From assembly GCA_028713935.1 (NCBI GenBank), contig JAQTNI010000032.1:1-16376 (forward strand): 16,376 nucleotides of DNA, written 5' to 3'. The notes beneath the pieces were generated by a model, which was given only the letters and a program-made list of their open reading frames with translations, was not told the origin of the DNA and ran no database searches. The position numbers and the translations under genes were made by a program. Positions 1,435-16,376 of this stretch are shown one piece after another (the stretch's first letter is position 1; each line of letters begins with the position of its first letter). The DNA is from Candidatus Iainarchaeum sp. Lineage in GTDB: Archaea; Iainarchaeota; Iainarchaeia; Iainarchaeales; GCA-2688035.

Positions 1435-2439
1435 TTATTGGATTCTTAATTTTTCAATTTCTTTTTCTGAAACCTGCTTCACAATTATTTTTTTCTTTTT
1501 TGATGGCAAAGCCCAGTATTCAACTTCGGCTTTTTCCTGCCTGCAGTCGGAATAGCGCAGTGTTAATTGCGCCGCTGCCTGCAAAGTGCTTTTTGTTTTT
1601 TTTCCCTGCAAAATTGCAACCGGGCTTCCAGTGTTCGGCACTTCAAATGCAATTTCATTTTTTTGCTTCAGCCCGAGCAATTGCGCGTTTTCTTCCTTGT
1701 TTCTTCCGACAATTATTTTGTTTTTTCCAATCCTGAAATGCCTGCCAATTTTGAGAATTGCAATGTCTTTAAGGGAAACTGTTTTTTTGTTTTTAAAAAG
1801 GTCCCTGATTTTTGCTGCAAATTCTTTATAGGTTAAAAGGCATCCTCCCGATGGGCAGGGAAAATCGTTTATGCCGAATTTTTTTGCAAGCTCAAACTGG
1901 GGTTTTCTTGTCCTGCCCTGCAGGCACAAAAGCTTGTTCCTGTCAACCCATTTTTTTTCCTCGGCTTCTGTTGGGGCCAATAGTTTTGCGGAAAGCGGCC
2001 TTAACAGTTTTCCTTCAAGGCCAGCTTCTTTTTCAATTTTTTTCAATGCCTGGAAATGCTGGCTCATTGGCCTCTGCCCAAGCACTTCTCCTGTGAACAA
2101 GAATTTTGCGCCTGTTTTTTTTGCAAATGACTTTGCCTCTTTTAAAATGAAAATCCTGCAGTCAATGCAGGGATTCATTGCGCTTCCATAACCGTGCTTT
2201 GGATTGCGCAATAGCTTAAGGTATTTTTCTCCCTTGGGAATAACCTTGGAGGCAATCCCGAGTTTTTTTGCTGTTTCAGCCGAATAGCATTTTCCTTTCT
2301 GGTTGCATAGGCAGAAAGGGCTTGTAAAAGTCAGTGCAATCACTTCAATGCCCTGGTCCTGCAAAAGTTTTACTGCAAGAGTTGAGTCCAGGCCTCCTGA
2401 CAGCAAGCCGATTGCCTTGATTTTTTGCACAGTAGCCAT
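1435..2439 (-). CDS. PP-loop ATP pyrophosphatase, ThiI/MnmA-like tRNA sulfurtransferase family
   Basis: N-terminal PP-loop IGLLSGGLDSTLAVKLL. Also NPCIDCRIF and FTGEVLGQRPMSQ...LLRPL, which resemble the ThiI C-terminal domain motifs (TGExLGQxxSQ, RPL). 334 aa, ATG start. Confidence 0.8.
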   Translation of the reverse strand: MATVQKIKAIGLLSGGLDSTLAVKLLQDQGIEVIALTFTSPFCLCNQKGKCYSAETAKKLGIASKVIPKGEKYLKLLRNPKHGYGSAMNPCIDCRIFILKEAKSFAKKTGAKFLFTGEVLGQRPMSQHFQALKKIEKEAGLEGKLLRPLSAKLLAPTEAEEKKWVDRNKLLCLQGRTRKPQFELAKKFGINDFPCPSGGCLLTYKEFAAKIRDLFKNKKTVSLKDIAILKIGRHFRIGKNKIIVGRNKEENAQLLGLKQKNEIAFEVPNTGSPVAILQGKKTKSTLQAAAQLTLRYSDCRQEKAEVEYWALPSKKKKIIVKQVSEKEIEKLRIQ

Positions 2440-3862: not shown

Positions 3863-3934
3863 AATAGTTTTCCAGTCCCAATCCCTATTTTGAATTCAAT
3901 TTTGCCACGCTTATGTGTGTTTAAAAAAGTAAAA

Positions 3935-4180
3935 CGCAGGGACAGGGATTTGAACCCTGGCTCCCTTTCGGGAACGAGCTAGCTACTGCCCTTTTCTTTT
4001 TCTTTAGGAAAGAAAAAGAAAAGTGTAAGTTGCCCAAAAGAAAAAGAAAAAAATTCCTTTTCATGCGGGCAAAGTGAACTACAAAATTGCAAAGCAATTT
4101 TGTTTCTTTCCCAAGGCTTTCTTTGCTCTGCAAAGAAAGGCTTTAGCAGGCTCGCGCGTTAACCACTCCGCCATCCCTGC
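3935..4180 (-). tRNA. tRNA-Ser(GCU): tRNA-Ser (anticodon GCU), class II, interrupted by a 163-nt intron at the canonical 37/38 position; CCA not encoded
   Basis: Hand-folded from the reverse complement. Acceptor GCAGGGA/TCCCTGC. D arm GCG-GAGTGGTTAA-CGC. Anticodon stem CGAGC/GCTCG with loop CTGCTA|A. Long variable arm TTCCCGAAAGGGAGC. T arm CAGGG-TTCAAAT-CCCTG. Discriminator G. An A/T-rich box lies about 20-30 nt upstream (4200-4212). Confidence 0.9.
3981..4143 (-). other. tRNA-Ser intron (163 nt, junction ambiguous by 1 nt)
   Basis: This is the sequence between A37 and A38 of the folded tRNA. A UAGC segment complementary to anticodon+37 sits next to the 3' junction, as expected for a bulge-helix-bulge substrate. 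The intron contains a perfect 15-bp polypyrimidine/polypurine hairpin (3991-4023) and the repeat module at 4083-4142. Confidence 0.8.
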
Positions 4181-4253
4181 ATGTTATAGTGGCGCTAATT
4201 ATTTTTTTTAAGCAACTAATTTTAATGCTTTGTGGGAAGCAAAAGAGGGGGTT

Positions 4254-10890: not shown

Positions 10891-10901
10891 AAATTATCAA
10901 T

Positions 10902-11137
10902 GCACGGGTAGGGAAGCGGTCAAACCCGCGAGACTCAAGAGGCCTTTTCTTGGCAAGAAAAGCCCTGGGAAAAGAAACTTTTTTCTTTTGGAAAAAAGTG
11001 AAGTTCGCTTCGCTCACAGCTTTTTCTCTAAAGAGAAAAACCTGGGAAAAAGAGGAATTTTTGCTTTGCAAAAATTTTATTTGTTTGAGCTATCTCGTCG
11101 CTTAGTGCGTTCGGCGGTTCGATCCCGCCCCCGTGCA
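10902..11137 (+). tRNA. tRNA-Leu(CAA): tRNA-Leu (anticodon CAA), class II, interrupted by a 152-nt intron at 37/38; CCA not encoded
   Basis: Acceptor GCACGGG/CCCGTGC. D arm GGG-AAGCGGTCAAA-CCC. Anticodon stem CGAGA/TCTCG with loop CTCAAG|A. Variable arm TCGCTTAGTGCGTTC. T arm GGCGG-TTCGATC-CCGCC. Discriminator A. Confidence 0.9.
10940..11091 (+). other. tRNA-Leu intron (152 nt, junction ambiguous by 1 nt)
   Basis: Lies between G37 and A38. A UUUG segment able to pair with CAAG (anticodon+37) sits 4 nt before the 3' junction. Made almost entirely of hairpins: CTTTTCTT-ggc-AAGAAAAG (10944-10962), TTTTTTC-tttt-GGAAAAAA, GAAG-TTCG-CTTC (11000-11011), TTTTTCTCT-aa-AGAGAAAAA (11021-11040), TTTTTGC-ttt-GCAAAAA (11058-11074). 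Confidence 0.8.
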
Positions 11138-11237
11138 ATCTCATTCTGGGATATATACATATCACTTTTTTGGACTGTGTTTTAAGAAGATTTATCTCGC
11201 AACTAATAATTCAACATATCTCATTTTGAAGAAATAG

Positions 11238-13044: not shown

Positions 13045-13185
13045 ATGAATATTGGGGCAATTTTTTTTGTAGCTGGCTTTTTGGTGTCATTGGCTGCAAT
13101 AACCCCGAATTTTTTAATGCTATTGATTGGCTGCGGAGTAATGGCTGCGGGCTTATTGGTAATGCAAACGAACTGGGGTGAATAA
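13045..13185 (+). CDS. 46-aa hydrophobic micro-protein (two predicted TM segments) directly abutting rpl41e
   Basis: Not in the ORF track (shorter than 60 aa). MNIGAIFFVAGFLVSLAAITPNFLMLLIGCGVMAAGLLVMQTNWGE. Its TAA stop is immediately followed by the rpl41e ATG (TAAATG). A TTTTTATG box lies about 29 nt upstream of the ATG. Confidence 0.35.
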   Translation: MNIGAIFFVAGFLVSLAAITPNFLMLLIGCGVMAAGLLVMQTNWGE

Positions 13186-13317
13186 ATGGGCAAGCGGAAA
13201 AGGGATTCCAGCAGATTCAAAAAGACAAGGGCAAGGCAGCGCTGGAAATGGAAAAAGAAAAAGATGCGCAGAAAAAAGCGCAGAAAAAGATACCTGCGGC
13301 AAAGAGCAAGGGCATAA
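13186..13317 (+). CDS. rpl41e: Ribosomal protein L41e (eL41)
   Basis: Not in the ORF track (43 codons). MGKRKRDSSRFKKTRARQRWKWKKKKMRRKKRRKRYLRQRARA. The RWKWKKKKMRRKKRRKR...RQR core matches the eL41 pattern (eukaryotic [25 protein letters not shown]; archaeal homologues carry an N-terminal extension). Confidence 0.75.
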   Translation: MGKRKRDSSRFKKTRARQRWKWKKKKMRRKKRRKRYLRQRARA

Positions 13318-13376
13318 AGGCCTTTTCTTCCCAAGAAAAGCCCTGGGAAAAGAATTTTTTTGCCTTGCAAAAAAAC
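13318..13376 (+). repeat. Repeat-family copy immediately 3' of rpl41e
   Basis: AGGCCTTTTCTTcccAAGAAAAGCCCTGGGAAAAGAA (13318-13354) is 35/37 identical to the 5' end of the tRNA-Leu intron (10940-10976). It is followed by the hairpin TTTTTTTGC-ctt-GCAAAAAAA, as in 11058-11074. Confidence 0.65.
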
Positions 13377-13432
13377 TTTTTATTTTTGCAAACCGCTTTG
13401 TTTTTTCGGTTTGCTTTTTCAATTCTTTTTTT

Positions 13433-14371
13433 TCAAAAGATTTTTGCAATCCAGGTGTAGTACAGGATAATCATGCCTGCTATAAAAAGCAAATTGTGAA
13501 AGTAAAGGATTTTGTACATTTTTTTCATGTCGCTTTCCTGGGGGTTTCTCAGGGCAGGCTTGTAAAGCGGAATTGAAAATAAAGAGAGAAATCCCAATAA
13601 CAAAAATCTGTGGGGCCAGAAACCAAAAAATCGCAGCCCTGGAAGCCATTGCCAGAAAAAACTGTTAGTGCACAACAACAAATAAGCAATTCCGCCTGCA
13701 AGCAAAACAATATAGCAAATCCAGCGCAATTTTCTTTCAGGAAAACAGACAACGCTGCTCTTGTAATTCATCTGCTTGTCATGCTTTGTAGAGCTGACCC
13801 TGTACAATCCATAACCGCCAAACTGCAATCCAAGAATAAAAATCAATGCAAGGATAGGCGCATTGAATGCGGGAACAAACAATGTCCAGCCGGCATAAAA
13901 CCTGAAAACAGGGTTTACTAGCGAGCCTGAAATCAAATCAAGCACTGGCCTTTTTTTGAAATTAAACGGCTTCATTGTGTAAAGAATCTGGTTTACAAGC
14001 ATTATGAAGAGGCAGAGCAGATACAAAAACGAGCCGTTAATAAAAAACCCGATTGCAAGTGCAATTAAAACCAGTGCAATTGAAAAAACCAAAGCAACTT
14101 TTGCAGGCACCCTGCCAGAAGGAATTGCACGCGCTTTTTTAATCGGGTGCAATGCATCTGCTTTCCTGTCAGTATAATCATTAAGCGCATAAAGCCCGCT
14201 CCAGAGCAATGCAATCCCTGCAAAGCCGATTGCAAATTTTATCGGGTCAAGGGCAATTCCAAAAACAATTCCCGCTGTAATTGCTGCAACAACCATGTTT
14301 GCAAAGCTCTTGCTCCATTCCATTGGCCGCATGAGCGAAACAAGGCCCCTGATAAAAACAAAAAAAGACAT
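13433..14371 (-). CDS. UbiA-family membrane prenyltransferase (divergent)
   Basis: Polytopic membrane protein (about 8 hydrophobic helices) with the first Asp-rich motif LNDYTDRKADALHPIKKARAIPSGRV (NDxxDxxxD...RP/IPSG), typical of UbiA/DGGGP-synthase-type enzymes. The second Asp-rich motif is degenerate, so the substrate cannot be assigned. Confidence 0.7.
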   Translation of the reverse strand: MSFFVFIRGLVSLMRPMEWSKSFANMVVAAITAGIVFGIALDPIKFAIGFAGIALLWSGLYALNDYTDRKADALHPIKKARAIPSGRVPAKVALVFSIALVLIALAIGFFINGSFLYLLCLFIMLVNQILYTMKPFNFKKRPVLDLISGSLVNPVFRFYAGWTLFVPAFNAPILALIFILGLQFGGYGLYRVSSTKHDKQMNYKSSVVCFPERKLRWICYIVLLAGGIAYLLLCTNSFFWQWLPGLRFFGFWPHRFLLLGFLSLFSIPLYKPALRNPQESDMKKMYKILYFHNLLFIAGMIILYYTWIAKIF

Positions 14372-14971: not shown

Positions 14972-16376
14972 ATTCCAGCTGATCCTGCTGGAGGATACTG
15001 CTATCGAAATCCGACTTAGACATGCAAGTCTTGGAAGCAAGGCCATTCTTGTTTCCGGCAAACGGCTCAGTAACACGTGGACAATCTGCCCTTGAGAGGA
15101 GCAAAACCCGGGAAACTGGGCATAATACTCCGTAGGCAATCGACACTGGAAGGTTTGATTGCCAAAAAGCATTGCAGTGAATGCTATTGCAATGCGCTCA
15201 AGGATGAGTCTGCGGTGGATTAGGCTGTTGGCGGGGTAACTGCCCACCAAACCATTGATCCATACGGGCCTTGGAAGAGGGAGCCCGGAGAAGGACACTG
15301 AGATAAGGGTCCTAGCCCTACGGGGTGCAGCAGTCGCGAAAACTTTACAATGCGCGAAAGCGTGATAGGGGGATTTCGAGTGCAAGTTAAACTTGCTTTT
15401 GCCGAGCCCAAAAAACTCGGCGAATAAGTGGGGGGTAAGATACGTGCCAGCCGCCGCGGTAATACGTACTCCACAAGTGGTATCCGCTAATATTGGGCCT
15501 AAAACGTCTGTAGCCTGTTCAAAAAGTCTTTGGTGAAATCCAGTTGCCCAACAATTGGAATTGCCAAAGATACTCTTGGACTCGGGACCGGGAGAGGTTA
15601 AGGGAATTTCTGGAGTAGCGGTGAAATGCTATGATCCCAGAAAGACCACCAGTAGCGAAGGCGCTTAACCAGAACGGGTCCGACGGTGAGAGACGAAAGC
15701 TGGGGGAGCGACCCGGATTAGATACCCGGTTAGTCCCAGCCGTAAACGATGTGGACTAGGTGTTCCGTCACCCTCGAGGTGCCGGAGTGCCGTAGGGAAG
15801 CCATTAAGTCCACTGCCAGGGAAGTACACTCGCAAGGGTGAAACTTAATGGAATTGGCGGGAGCTCACTACAAGGGGTGGATGCTGCGGTTCAATTGGAT
15901 ACAACCCCAGATAATCTTACCAGAGCCGACAGCAGAATGATGGACAGTCTGAAGGGCTTTCCTGACGCGCTGAGAGGTGTTGTATGGTCATCGTCAGCTC
16001 GTACTATGAAGCGTCCTGTTAACTCAGGCAACGGGCGAGACCCACGCCAATAGTTGCAACCAGGAGAATTTTCTTTTGGGCACTCTATTGGGACTGCGAC
16101 AGCAATGTTGAGGAAGGAGTGGGCCACGGTAGATCTGTATGGCCCGAATGCTTTGGGCAACACGCGGCATACAATGGCTAAGACAAAGGGTCACGACACC
16201 GAAAGGTGAAGTTAATCTCATAACCTTAGCCTCAGTTCGGATCGAGGGTTGTAACTCACCCTCGTGAATGCCTGGAATCCCCAGTAATTGCAGTTCATTA
16301 TACTGCGGTGAATACGTCCCTGAGCTTTGCACACACCGCCCATCAAGCCAGTTGAGTAGAGCCTGGATGAGATGTT
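14972..16376 (+). rRNA. rrs: 16S rRNA, archaeal type, 5' about 1400 nt (3' end beyond the window)
   Basis: 5' end ATTCCAGCTGATCCTGCTGGAGG (archaeal helix 1 with compensatory changes). GTGCCAGCCGCCGCGGTAATAC at 15444. GGATTAGATACCCGGTTAGTCC at about 15716. AAACTTAATGGAATTGGCGGG at 15841. TTGCACACACCGCCCATCA at 16327-16345. No large insertions detected relative to the usual spacing of these landmarks. Confidence 0.97.

Follow-up and report, generated by a model that had tools for sequence, protein, structure and literature searches.

We analysed a window of 16,376 nucleotides (nt; positions 1 to 16,376 of contig JAQTNI010000032.1, forward strand) from an assembly of Candidatus Iainarchaeum sp. 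(GCA_028713935.1, here G000; 1.23 Mb, 72 contigs, 40% G+C). On its minus strand lies a class II tRNA-Ser(GCU) gene with a long variable arm (3935-4180), the only gene for this tRNA found in the assembly, which is interrupted at the canonical position 37/38 by a 163-nt intron (3981-4143). We consider it very likely that this is a genuine canonical bulge-helix-bulge (BHB) intron whose length and order came about through the accretion of mobile, triplex-type repeat modules, and that it is not an intron-specific structured RNA.

The tRNA-Ser(GCU) gene and its splice motif

The gene matches the Rfam family RF00005 from 4180 to 3935 with 38.8 bits (gathering score 29), covering model positions 1-71 with a single 165-nt insertion after CUGCU, and ARAGORN, when introns are allowed, reports tRNA-Ser(gct) at c[3934,4181] with an intron of 163 nt. 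With default settings ARAGORN finds no tRNA in the window, and genes of this kind, with a long intron, are missed by default tRNA finders during annotation. Once the insert is taken out, a complete tRNA remains that fits the tRNA model of both RF00005 and ARAGORN. The 5' exon (4144-4180; tRNA nucleotides 1-37; 37 nt) contains the anticodon GCU at 4147-4145, the 3' exon (3935-3980; nucleotides 38-73; 46 nt; placed from sequence and Rfam) ends without an encoded CCA, and the mature tRNA is 83 nt long. The first-pass annotation, made from the sequence of the window, had proposed just this: an 83-nt tRNA-Ser(GCU) with a canonically placed 163-nt intron. The Rfam insertion, the ARAGORN call and the BHB motif agree with it, and the junction is the same in orthologous genes. 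The split or permuted gene that it had named as the competing outcome did not emerge, the two exons being collinear and 163 nt apart. An A/T-rich, TATA-like box at 4196-4211 on the minus strand (-31 to -16 from the tRNA 5' end) may be the promoter; boxes of the TTTTAAATA type stand at about -38 to -28 of other tRNA genes in this genome. Directly 3' of the discriminator base, the T-rich stretch TTTTACTTTTTT (3919-3934, minus strand) is a putative terminator, archaeal transcription commonly ending at oligo-T.

The splice junctions and BHB geometry, which the annotation had left to a dedicated tRNA finder, hold up in ARAGORN with introns allowed and in an hBHBh' arrangement of helices. Helix h is the anticodon stem, with 5/5 pairs. 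On the 5' side (4143-4149), the helix H strand C32-C35 (4149-4146) is followed by a 3-nt bulge made of U36, A37 and the first intron nucleotide, A (4145-4143), in which the cut would fall between 4144 and 4143. On the 3' side (3980-3992), the helix h' strand (3992-3988) is followed by an unpaired A (3987), the H strand GUAG (3986-3983) and a second 3-nt bulge consisting of intronic C and U and exonic A (3982-3980), with the cut between 3981 and 3980. All four pairs of helix H form between C32 U33 G34 C35 and GUAG; helix h' begins with an A.A mismatch and continues with five pairs between GCCUU, the head of a repeat module that we call A, and AGGGC (3992-3988), which consists of two bases from the purine arm and three from the head of a second module, B (both modules are described below). 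The tRNA-specific frame of the intron comprises a single 5'-terminal A and a 3'-terminal GUAGCU, which pairs with nucleotides 32-35 of the anticodon loop. Among ten intron-bearing orthologous genes, nine have a fully paired helix H, the intron strand being GUAG, GCAG, GCGG or GUGG. We prefer this canonical register to the minimum-energy one because of its comparative support, the minimum-energy register being unconserved. Within the genome, 7 of 17 credible long introns have a strict BHB motif, and a quick scan found a near-canonical one in most of the others.

The annotation had also called the intron unusually long and highly ordered, and rightly so: the intron alone folds with -58.8 kcal/mol (z = -5.6) and the precursor tRNA with -106.1 kcal/mol (z = -7.45), and none of 200 shuffled sequences was as stable in either case. 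It had described three hairpins, and all three are present. The perfect one of 15 bp is exactly as reported (4023-4009 pairing with 4005-3991); the supposed 12-bp hairpin consists of 10 perfect pairs, a C.C mismatch and 3 further pairs (4143-4130 / 4126-4113), and the supposed 8-bp hairpin has 9-10 pairs (4102-4094 / 4090-4082). Overlooked were a further hairpin, the fourth, at about 4072-4030, and the mirror-image third tracts discussed below. The tRNA-Trp intron of Haloferax encodes a C/D-box small RNA; as the annotation had stated, neither the C box RUGAUGA nor the D box CUGA occurs in the 163-nt intron of tRNA-Ser(GCU). Searched in E-value mode, Rfam gives no credible family over the intron besides tRNA, and no small nucleolar RNA family passes. 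An archaeal 16S rRNA that begins at 14972 of the window is the sole Rfam match at gathering score. A 70-amino-acid (aa) open reading frame (ORF) on the minus strand (3921-4133), which runs through the repeat tracts and exon 2, was taken as a low-complexity by-product. Oligo-U tracts serve as termination signals in archaea, and runs of U7, U5 and U4 occur in the intron (window 4036-4053, minus strand), within a single-copy essential tRNA gene.

Composition of the intron: two dispersed modules

A BLAST search of the precursor against its own genome returned 52 matches: those to the last 65 nt of the intron number more than 25, with 80-94% identity, and those to the first 70 nt about ten. Profiles of the two modules were built from the intron copies and searched against the genome with nhmmer, which yielded 60 copies of module A and 48 of module B and matched both copies in the intron. 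Module A lies in forward orientation at 4080-4142 on the minus strand (nhmmer 1.9e-14) and consists of a pyrimidine arm (4139-4130), a loop (4129-4127), a purine arm (4126-4117), a linker (4116-4111), a mirror purine tract (4110-4102) and a second hairpin (4102-4082). A 30-nt spacer (4050-4079, minus strand), assigned to the ancestral intron from the fold and the alignment with the two congeneric genomes G001 and G002, contains the purine tract GAAAAGGAA (4062-4054) and the U7 run (4053-4047). Module B (3986-4049) is inverted, its forward sense being on the plus strand (nhmmer 6.4e-16 on that strand), and truncated, lacking the TGTTTATC tail. Along the RNA it comprises a third, Hoogsteen-type pyrimidine tract (4049-4036), the linker GGGCAACUUACA (4035-4024), a pyrimidine arm (4023-4009), a loop (4008-4006), a purine arm (4005-3991) and the head GGCAG (3990-3986). 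As far as its sequence tells, the intron is a mosaic of two dispersed repeats and not a dedicated RNA, and it is long because it took up these elements.

The same modules recur throughout the tRNA gene set. Of the 39 tRNA genes that ARAGORN found, 19 were reported with an intron, between 35 and 236 nt long (four intron calls were wrong, two of them among the 19), and most credible long introns begin with module A or B. In total the modules reside in at least 15 tRNA introns, and they also lie flush with tRNA ends, after stop codons and before starts. A second example in the window is tRNA-Leu(CAA) (10901-11138, plus strand), whose 152-nt canonical intron, with a strict BHB, holds two module A copies (10940-11000 and 11019-11074). 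A further module A copy of the window (13318-13375, plus strand) overlies a crude ORF (13178-13576). At C1:47443-47766, what ARAGORN calls tRNA-Glu(ttc) with a 236-nt intron resembles a tRNA-Ser(UGA) gene whose intron contains module A; ahead of it, the first 12 nt of the tRNA occur a second time, joined to a further copy of the module.

The placement of the copies follows a rule: the module head (AAGCC or AGGCC in A, CTGCCC in B) points at the mature RNA. Forward copies start 0-2 nt after 5' splice sites and tRNA 3' ends, and inverted copies precede tRNA 5' ends or, in the tRNA-Ser(GCU) intron, the 3' splice site. Outside tRNA genes, where positions rest on crude ORF calls, module A frequently begins 0-6 nt past a stop codon, and the head of module B faces the start of a coding sequence (CDS) in 17 copies, between 7 nt and about 1 kb away (within 71 nt in 12), and the end of one in 9. 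Most B copies carry the tail TGTTTATCAAAAGTTCAGG (inverted reading) 17 nt upstream of the third tract, for instance at C11:11451-11505, C30:3414-3471, C41:1277-1331 and C41:323-379; upstream of tRNA-Val(TAC) a canonical TATA box, TTTAAAATATAA, occupies the tail position. If the B tail acts as a promoter, transcripts would begin near GGGCAAC, and in tailed copies the third tract would exist in DNA only. The copy in tRNA-Ser(GCU) has no conserved tail. In some B copies, head variants GGGGAG or GGCGGAGG stand 5-7 nt before an ATG, where they resemble Shine-Dalgarno sequences.

In another genus, the best match to the intron as a whole (78% over 158 nt) is the linker of a circularly permuted tRNA-Gln(UUG) in genome G004 (L010, about 1450-1720), which joins an upstream 3' half to the 5' half of the tRNA. 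Our assembly has the same permuted gene (C17, about 1722-1975, plus strand), miscalled by ARAGORN as tRNA-Pro(tgg) with a 207-nt intron. The complementarity needed for a BHB helix exists between its outer flanks (CCUGAGGAA / UUCUUCAGG). The arrangement of a forward A followed by an inverted B thus reads as a general spacer leading from the end of one mature RNA to the start of the next, and this keeps alive, weakly, the idea that the two halves of tRNA-Ser(GCU) are transcribed separately and joined by trans-splicing, with module A and the U runs ending the first transcript and inverted B acting as promoter and leader of the second. Besides the tRNA-Gln linker, the TATA-like tails of other inverted B copies, the 17 heads that face a CDS start and the U7 and U5 runs inside the intron speak for such a division. 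However, the B copy at issue lacks the TGTTTATC tail and has no A/T box at the proper distance, the exons stand in normal order and form the BHB in cis, and orthologous introns without module B have the same frame. We judge separate halves to be quite improbable, and keep to a single precursor with a cis-spliced mosaic intron.

The three-strand plan of the modules

Both modules follow one plan: a pyrimidine arm is followed by a short loop, by the purine arm that pairs with it, by a linker that is conserved (GCCYTGGG in A, TGTAAGTTGCCC in B) and finally by a third tract, likewise of purines. This third tract repeats the purine arm in mirror image rather than directly; for example, the third tract GAAAAGAG accompanies the purine arm AGAGAAAAG, and AAAAGAAAGAA accompanies AAGAAAGAAAAG. 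Among distinct copies of module A (12 distinct purine cores) the mirror relation was the better in 40, the direct relation in 1, and 8 were ties; the corresponding numbers for module B (22 distinct purine cores) are 29, 1 and 12. Since module copies are related to one another, these counts overstate their independence. When third tracts were re-paired with the arms of other copies, the observed number of perfect mirrors was reached in 0 of 2000 permutations for each module. Ordinary copying yields direct or inverted repeats, not mirror repeats; the simplest reading is therefore selection for a fold that places the third tract in the hairpin groove, and the three co-varying tracts point to an encoded intramolecular triple helix. 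Such three-way co-variation is a rare comparative signature of a triple helix. Imperfect hairpins are too few for the selected strand to be read from G.U-wobble asymmetry.

ENE-type RNA triple helices, such as those of MALAT1 and PAN RNA, are built from a Hoogsteen U-rich strand, a Watson-Crick U-rich strand and an A-rich strand, with runs of U.A-U broken by C+.G-C, and that of MALAT1 adjoins a tRNA-like processing site. The order of strands in inverted module B is the same. There is no kinship of sequence or family, and the module tracts are connected by simple loops and situated within an intron.

Closer in layout are BoxC, the PIT elements and TM-ECO, bacterial intrastrand triplex repeats of unknown function that have been tied to genome variability (Holder et al. 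2015, PMC4666352). They too are multi-copy and intergenic, with a pyrimidine tract, a purine tract and a third tract mirroring the purines, and they present a class II plan on one strand and pyrimidine classes on the other. Both intron modules show the three consecutive tracts by which the PIT, BoxC and ITxF classes are defined; they depart from the loops of 1-6 nt for which that study searched and from the G/C-rich TM-ECO consensus, linker 2 of module B being 12 nt long and the tracts A/T-rich. They differ further in being archaeal, in residing in tRNA introns, in lying flush with RNA ends and in their fixed gene-facing orientation, and their folding is predicted.

Strand matters in this plan. 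The class II purine-motif plan forms in DNA, not in RNA, and the pyrimidine-motif plan is possible in RNA (Holder et al. 2015, PMC4666352). The forward strand of a module has the former and the opposite strand the latter, and almost every intron is transcribed with the purine-type plan. No other intron of this genome than that of tRNA-Ser(GCU) has a module transcribed in the triplex orientation open to RNA: there, inverted module B presents, in order, the third strand, the linker, the pyrimidine arm, the loop and the purine arm. Its tract 4049-4036, laid parallel to 4005-3992, gives 14 gapless matches (12 U.A and 2 C.G), and the RNA of module B has a pyrimidine-motif plan for 14 possible U.A-U and C+.G-C triples. 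With both orientations in one transcript, the intron is well suited to testing RNA against DNA triplex formation.

Spread of the modules and history of the intron

At several loci perfect direct repeats of 13-36 nt directly abut the module head. The longest, at C52:5992-6155, duplicates the opening 36 nt of a CDS and thereby leaves the gene intact. The others measure 20 nt at C58:2542-2722, 18 nt at C8:35106-35241 (around a composite of forward A and inverted B) and at C41:10249-10382, 15 nt at C55:4065-4242, C30:3400-3535 and C10:9848-10041, and 13 nt at C7:33626-33820. Flanking repeats of at least 12 nt occur at 9 of 93 loci; among controls, in which flanks were mismatched, the figure is 4 of 400. 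B elements enclosed by direct repeats span about 92-106 nt, some with a nested insert of about 60-70 nt in the hairpin loop. These eight clear target-site-like duplications, unusually long and variable in length, read as an insertion signature; since some copies carry them we regard the family as mobile, and it resembles miniature inverted-repeat transposable elements (MITEs) in having many dispersed copies that are present or absent among relatives (module B is missing from the intron of G001 and G002).

An idea modelled on REP/RAYT systems was set aside. The single Y1_Tnp gene, an IS200-type Y1 transposase (C7:22349-22702, plus strand), is flanked by GC-rich hairpins of its own, unrelated to the modules and with no module at its ends; it lies about 470 nt from an intron-bearing tRNA-Arg(CCU). 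Across 40 relatives its distribution tracks the modules loosely (Y1_Tnp in 11 of 24 genomes with modules and in 3 of 16 without). Neither TnpB nor a reverse transcriptase was found in the genome, which leaves IS605-type and retroposition routes unsupported. Bacterial MITE- and REP-like repeats such as REP/BIME and Correia elements ride on transcripts, and some of their copies carry promoter-like sequence. The modules share with them a short, non-coding, hairpin-forming, multi-copy nature at gene borders and differ in their variable duplications of 13-36 nt, the mirror third tract and their residence in tRNA introns; they also lack terminal inverted repeats, and the genome showed no transposase that could be their partner.

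Module B was detected in 63 of 214 genomes of the phylum searched (38 of 79 genera), and among the matches listed by kinship every genome with module B belongs to the same order. The intron used as a query matches 24 of 40 close relatives. Our literature search found no publication describing this repeat family and nothing relevant on a triple helix in archaeal tRNA introns.

A pattern search located orthologues of tRNA-Ser(GCU) in 13 other genomes of the same family, a comparison that the first-pass annotation had recommended. Nine have an intron at the same site (66, 77, 94, 109, 110, 116, 124, 132 and 149 nt) and four have an intronless gene. A neighbouring gene (679-aa ORF) is common to G001, G002 and G004, and at least those loci are therefore positional orthologues. 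Module A opens 8 of 10 orthologous introns and is for that reason considered old at this site, its presence going back to the family's ancestor. Compared with both congeners, the intron is longer by a single, cleanly delimited block of about 61 nt, which is the inverted module B, within collinear flanks; less this block it measures about 100 nt, comparable to the 109 and 116 nt of the congeners. The alignment thus indicates that inverted module B was inserted in this lineage only. The module A copy is 95% identical to that of a tRNA intron on contig C28, but its identity to the counterparts in the orthologous introns of G001 and G002 is only 80-82%, and copies are therefore taken to have been exchanged or replaced within a genome. 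The tRNA-Cys intron of G000 (94%) and other genera (95-97%) have the B copies most similar to that of tRNA-Ser(GCU). Intronless and intron-bearing genes occur in the same genera (g5 and g8); on this comparative evidence, gain and loss of the intron are ongoing, and the intron as such appears unneeded for tRNA-Ser function.

These comparisons also bear on the suggestion of the annotation that the intron is a structured RNA in its own right rather than spacer. That it is more than spacer stands, given the three-way co-variation and the selected fold to which it points; that it is an RNA specific to this intron does not, its parts being dispersed repeats with about 108 copies. A dedicated non-coding RNA, excised, stable and probably circular, with hairpins selected for a function of their own, would account for folding far beyond that of shuffled sequences and for the RNA-compatible 14-triple helix offered by inverted module B, and archaeal tRNA introns are indeed released as circles, the 103-nt tRNA-Trp intron of Haloferax having been recovered in circular form (PMC7714728). 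Yet the structured parts are generic repeats, some of them outside introns, module B with its 15-bp hairpin is missing in both congeners, orthologous introns vary widely in length and content and four genes have none, and neither C/D boxes nor an Rfam family other than tRNA was detected. We think a dedicated RNA improbable, and accretion of dispersed modules the better account.

The collinear flanks are equally relevant to a technical explanation, that the long intron is a chimera induced by repeats during assembly of a metagenome-assembled genome. The inserted part is indeed a multi-copy repeat and the draft comprises 72 contigs; however, the repeat is only about 60 nt long, both of its flanks align collinearly with orthologous introns and exons, neighbouring genes are syntenic, and the composite of A and inverted B exists in another genus as well. 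An artefact is very improbable indeed.

Several observations weigh against the account of a canonical intron enlarged by mobile triplex modules. The canonical BHB fold, at -98.6 kcal/mol, is 7.5 kcal/mol less stable than the minimum-energy fold (-106.1 kcal/mol), which is in another register, and helix h' opens with a mismatch. In the minimum-energy fold, moreover, the third strand of module B pairs with the upstream tract GAAAAGGAA (hairpin 3) and so competes with the triple helix. The U7 and U5 runs resemble archaeal terminators, which would be awkward inside a single-copy essential tRNA gene. As to mobility, no mobilising enzyme was identified in the genome in searches for Y1_Tnp, TnpB and reverse transcriptase. 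The module B copy of tRNA-Ser(GCU) itself has neither a flanking duplication nor the usual tail, and could stem from recombination or gene conversion instead of transposition.

For processing, the genome encodes plausible enzymes. Its sole EndA is a 176-aa ORF on contig C21 with one catalytic domain (PF01974, 91.9 bits); its size is that of alpha4 enzymes, and we classify it as putatively alpha4-type. Enzymes of this type accompany more disrupted tRNA genes in DPANN lineages (PMC5829648). RtcB is also encoded (profile match 566.9 bits), and an archaeal RNase P RNA is matched with 80 bits, slightly below the gathering score of 84. In the scheme that we propose, the gene would be transcribed from its own upstream A/T box and the modules would fold locally as self-contained hairpins, GCC of the A head pairing with GGC of the B head and bringing the splice sites together; EndA would then cut in both 3-nt bulges, and RtcB would ligate the exons and probably circularise the intron. 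Splicing and circularisation are what we infer from the sequence, as we do triplex formation (in RNA or DNA), any benefit to the cell and any function of the modules.

Two groups of archaeal introns allow comparison. In Haloferax volcanii the introns of tRNA-Trp, tRNA-Met and tRNA-Gln measure 103, 75 and 31 nt (PMC7714728). The tRNA-Ser(GCU) intron is like them in its position 37/38, its hBHBh'-type motif with two 3-nt bulges and a 4-bp helix and, by analogy, its expected removal by EndA and an RNA ligase with a circular intron as product; it differs in being longer (163 nt), free of C/D boxes and made up in its body of dispersed repeats, and in the mismatch with which h' begins. In Thermoproteales, related introns are common to different tRNA genes and have been attributed to "large-scale tRNA intron transposition" (Fujishima et al. 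2010, as summarised in PMC4090602). Near-identical sequence across tRNA identities within one genome is found here as well (95% between tRNA-Ser(GCU) and the C28 copy), and near-identical introns in tRNA genes of different identity imply copying at the DNA level. The Thermoproteales cases are short copies of whole introns, in contrast to the long mosaics of a DPANN lineage found here, where the module also occurs outside tRNA genes with target-site-like duplications, which makes a donor pool visible.

A bolder version of this account would have inverted module B fold the intron RNA into a helix of 14 triples that stabilises or compacts the excised circular intron, and would see in the module family a mobile triplex element that seeds and enlarges archaeal tRNA introns. 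We regard this as possible though doubtful. If it held, the intron would be the first natural RNA triple helix of such size in an archaeon, and the family would supply the missing donor for the origin of archaeal tRNA introns.

The origin and growth of archaeal tRNA introns remain open, and a 2026 census of tRNA introns in Asgard archaea did not find a general route of arrival (bioRxiv 10.64898/2026.10.13.758758). To this question the tRNA-Ser(GCU) locus adds a dated, lineage-specific insertion into a pre-existing intron: relatives retain shorter introns or none while one lineage added module B, and the enlargement of an intron can be seen here together with a donor module that is free in the genome.

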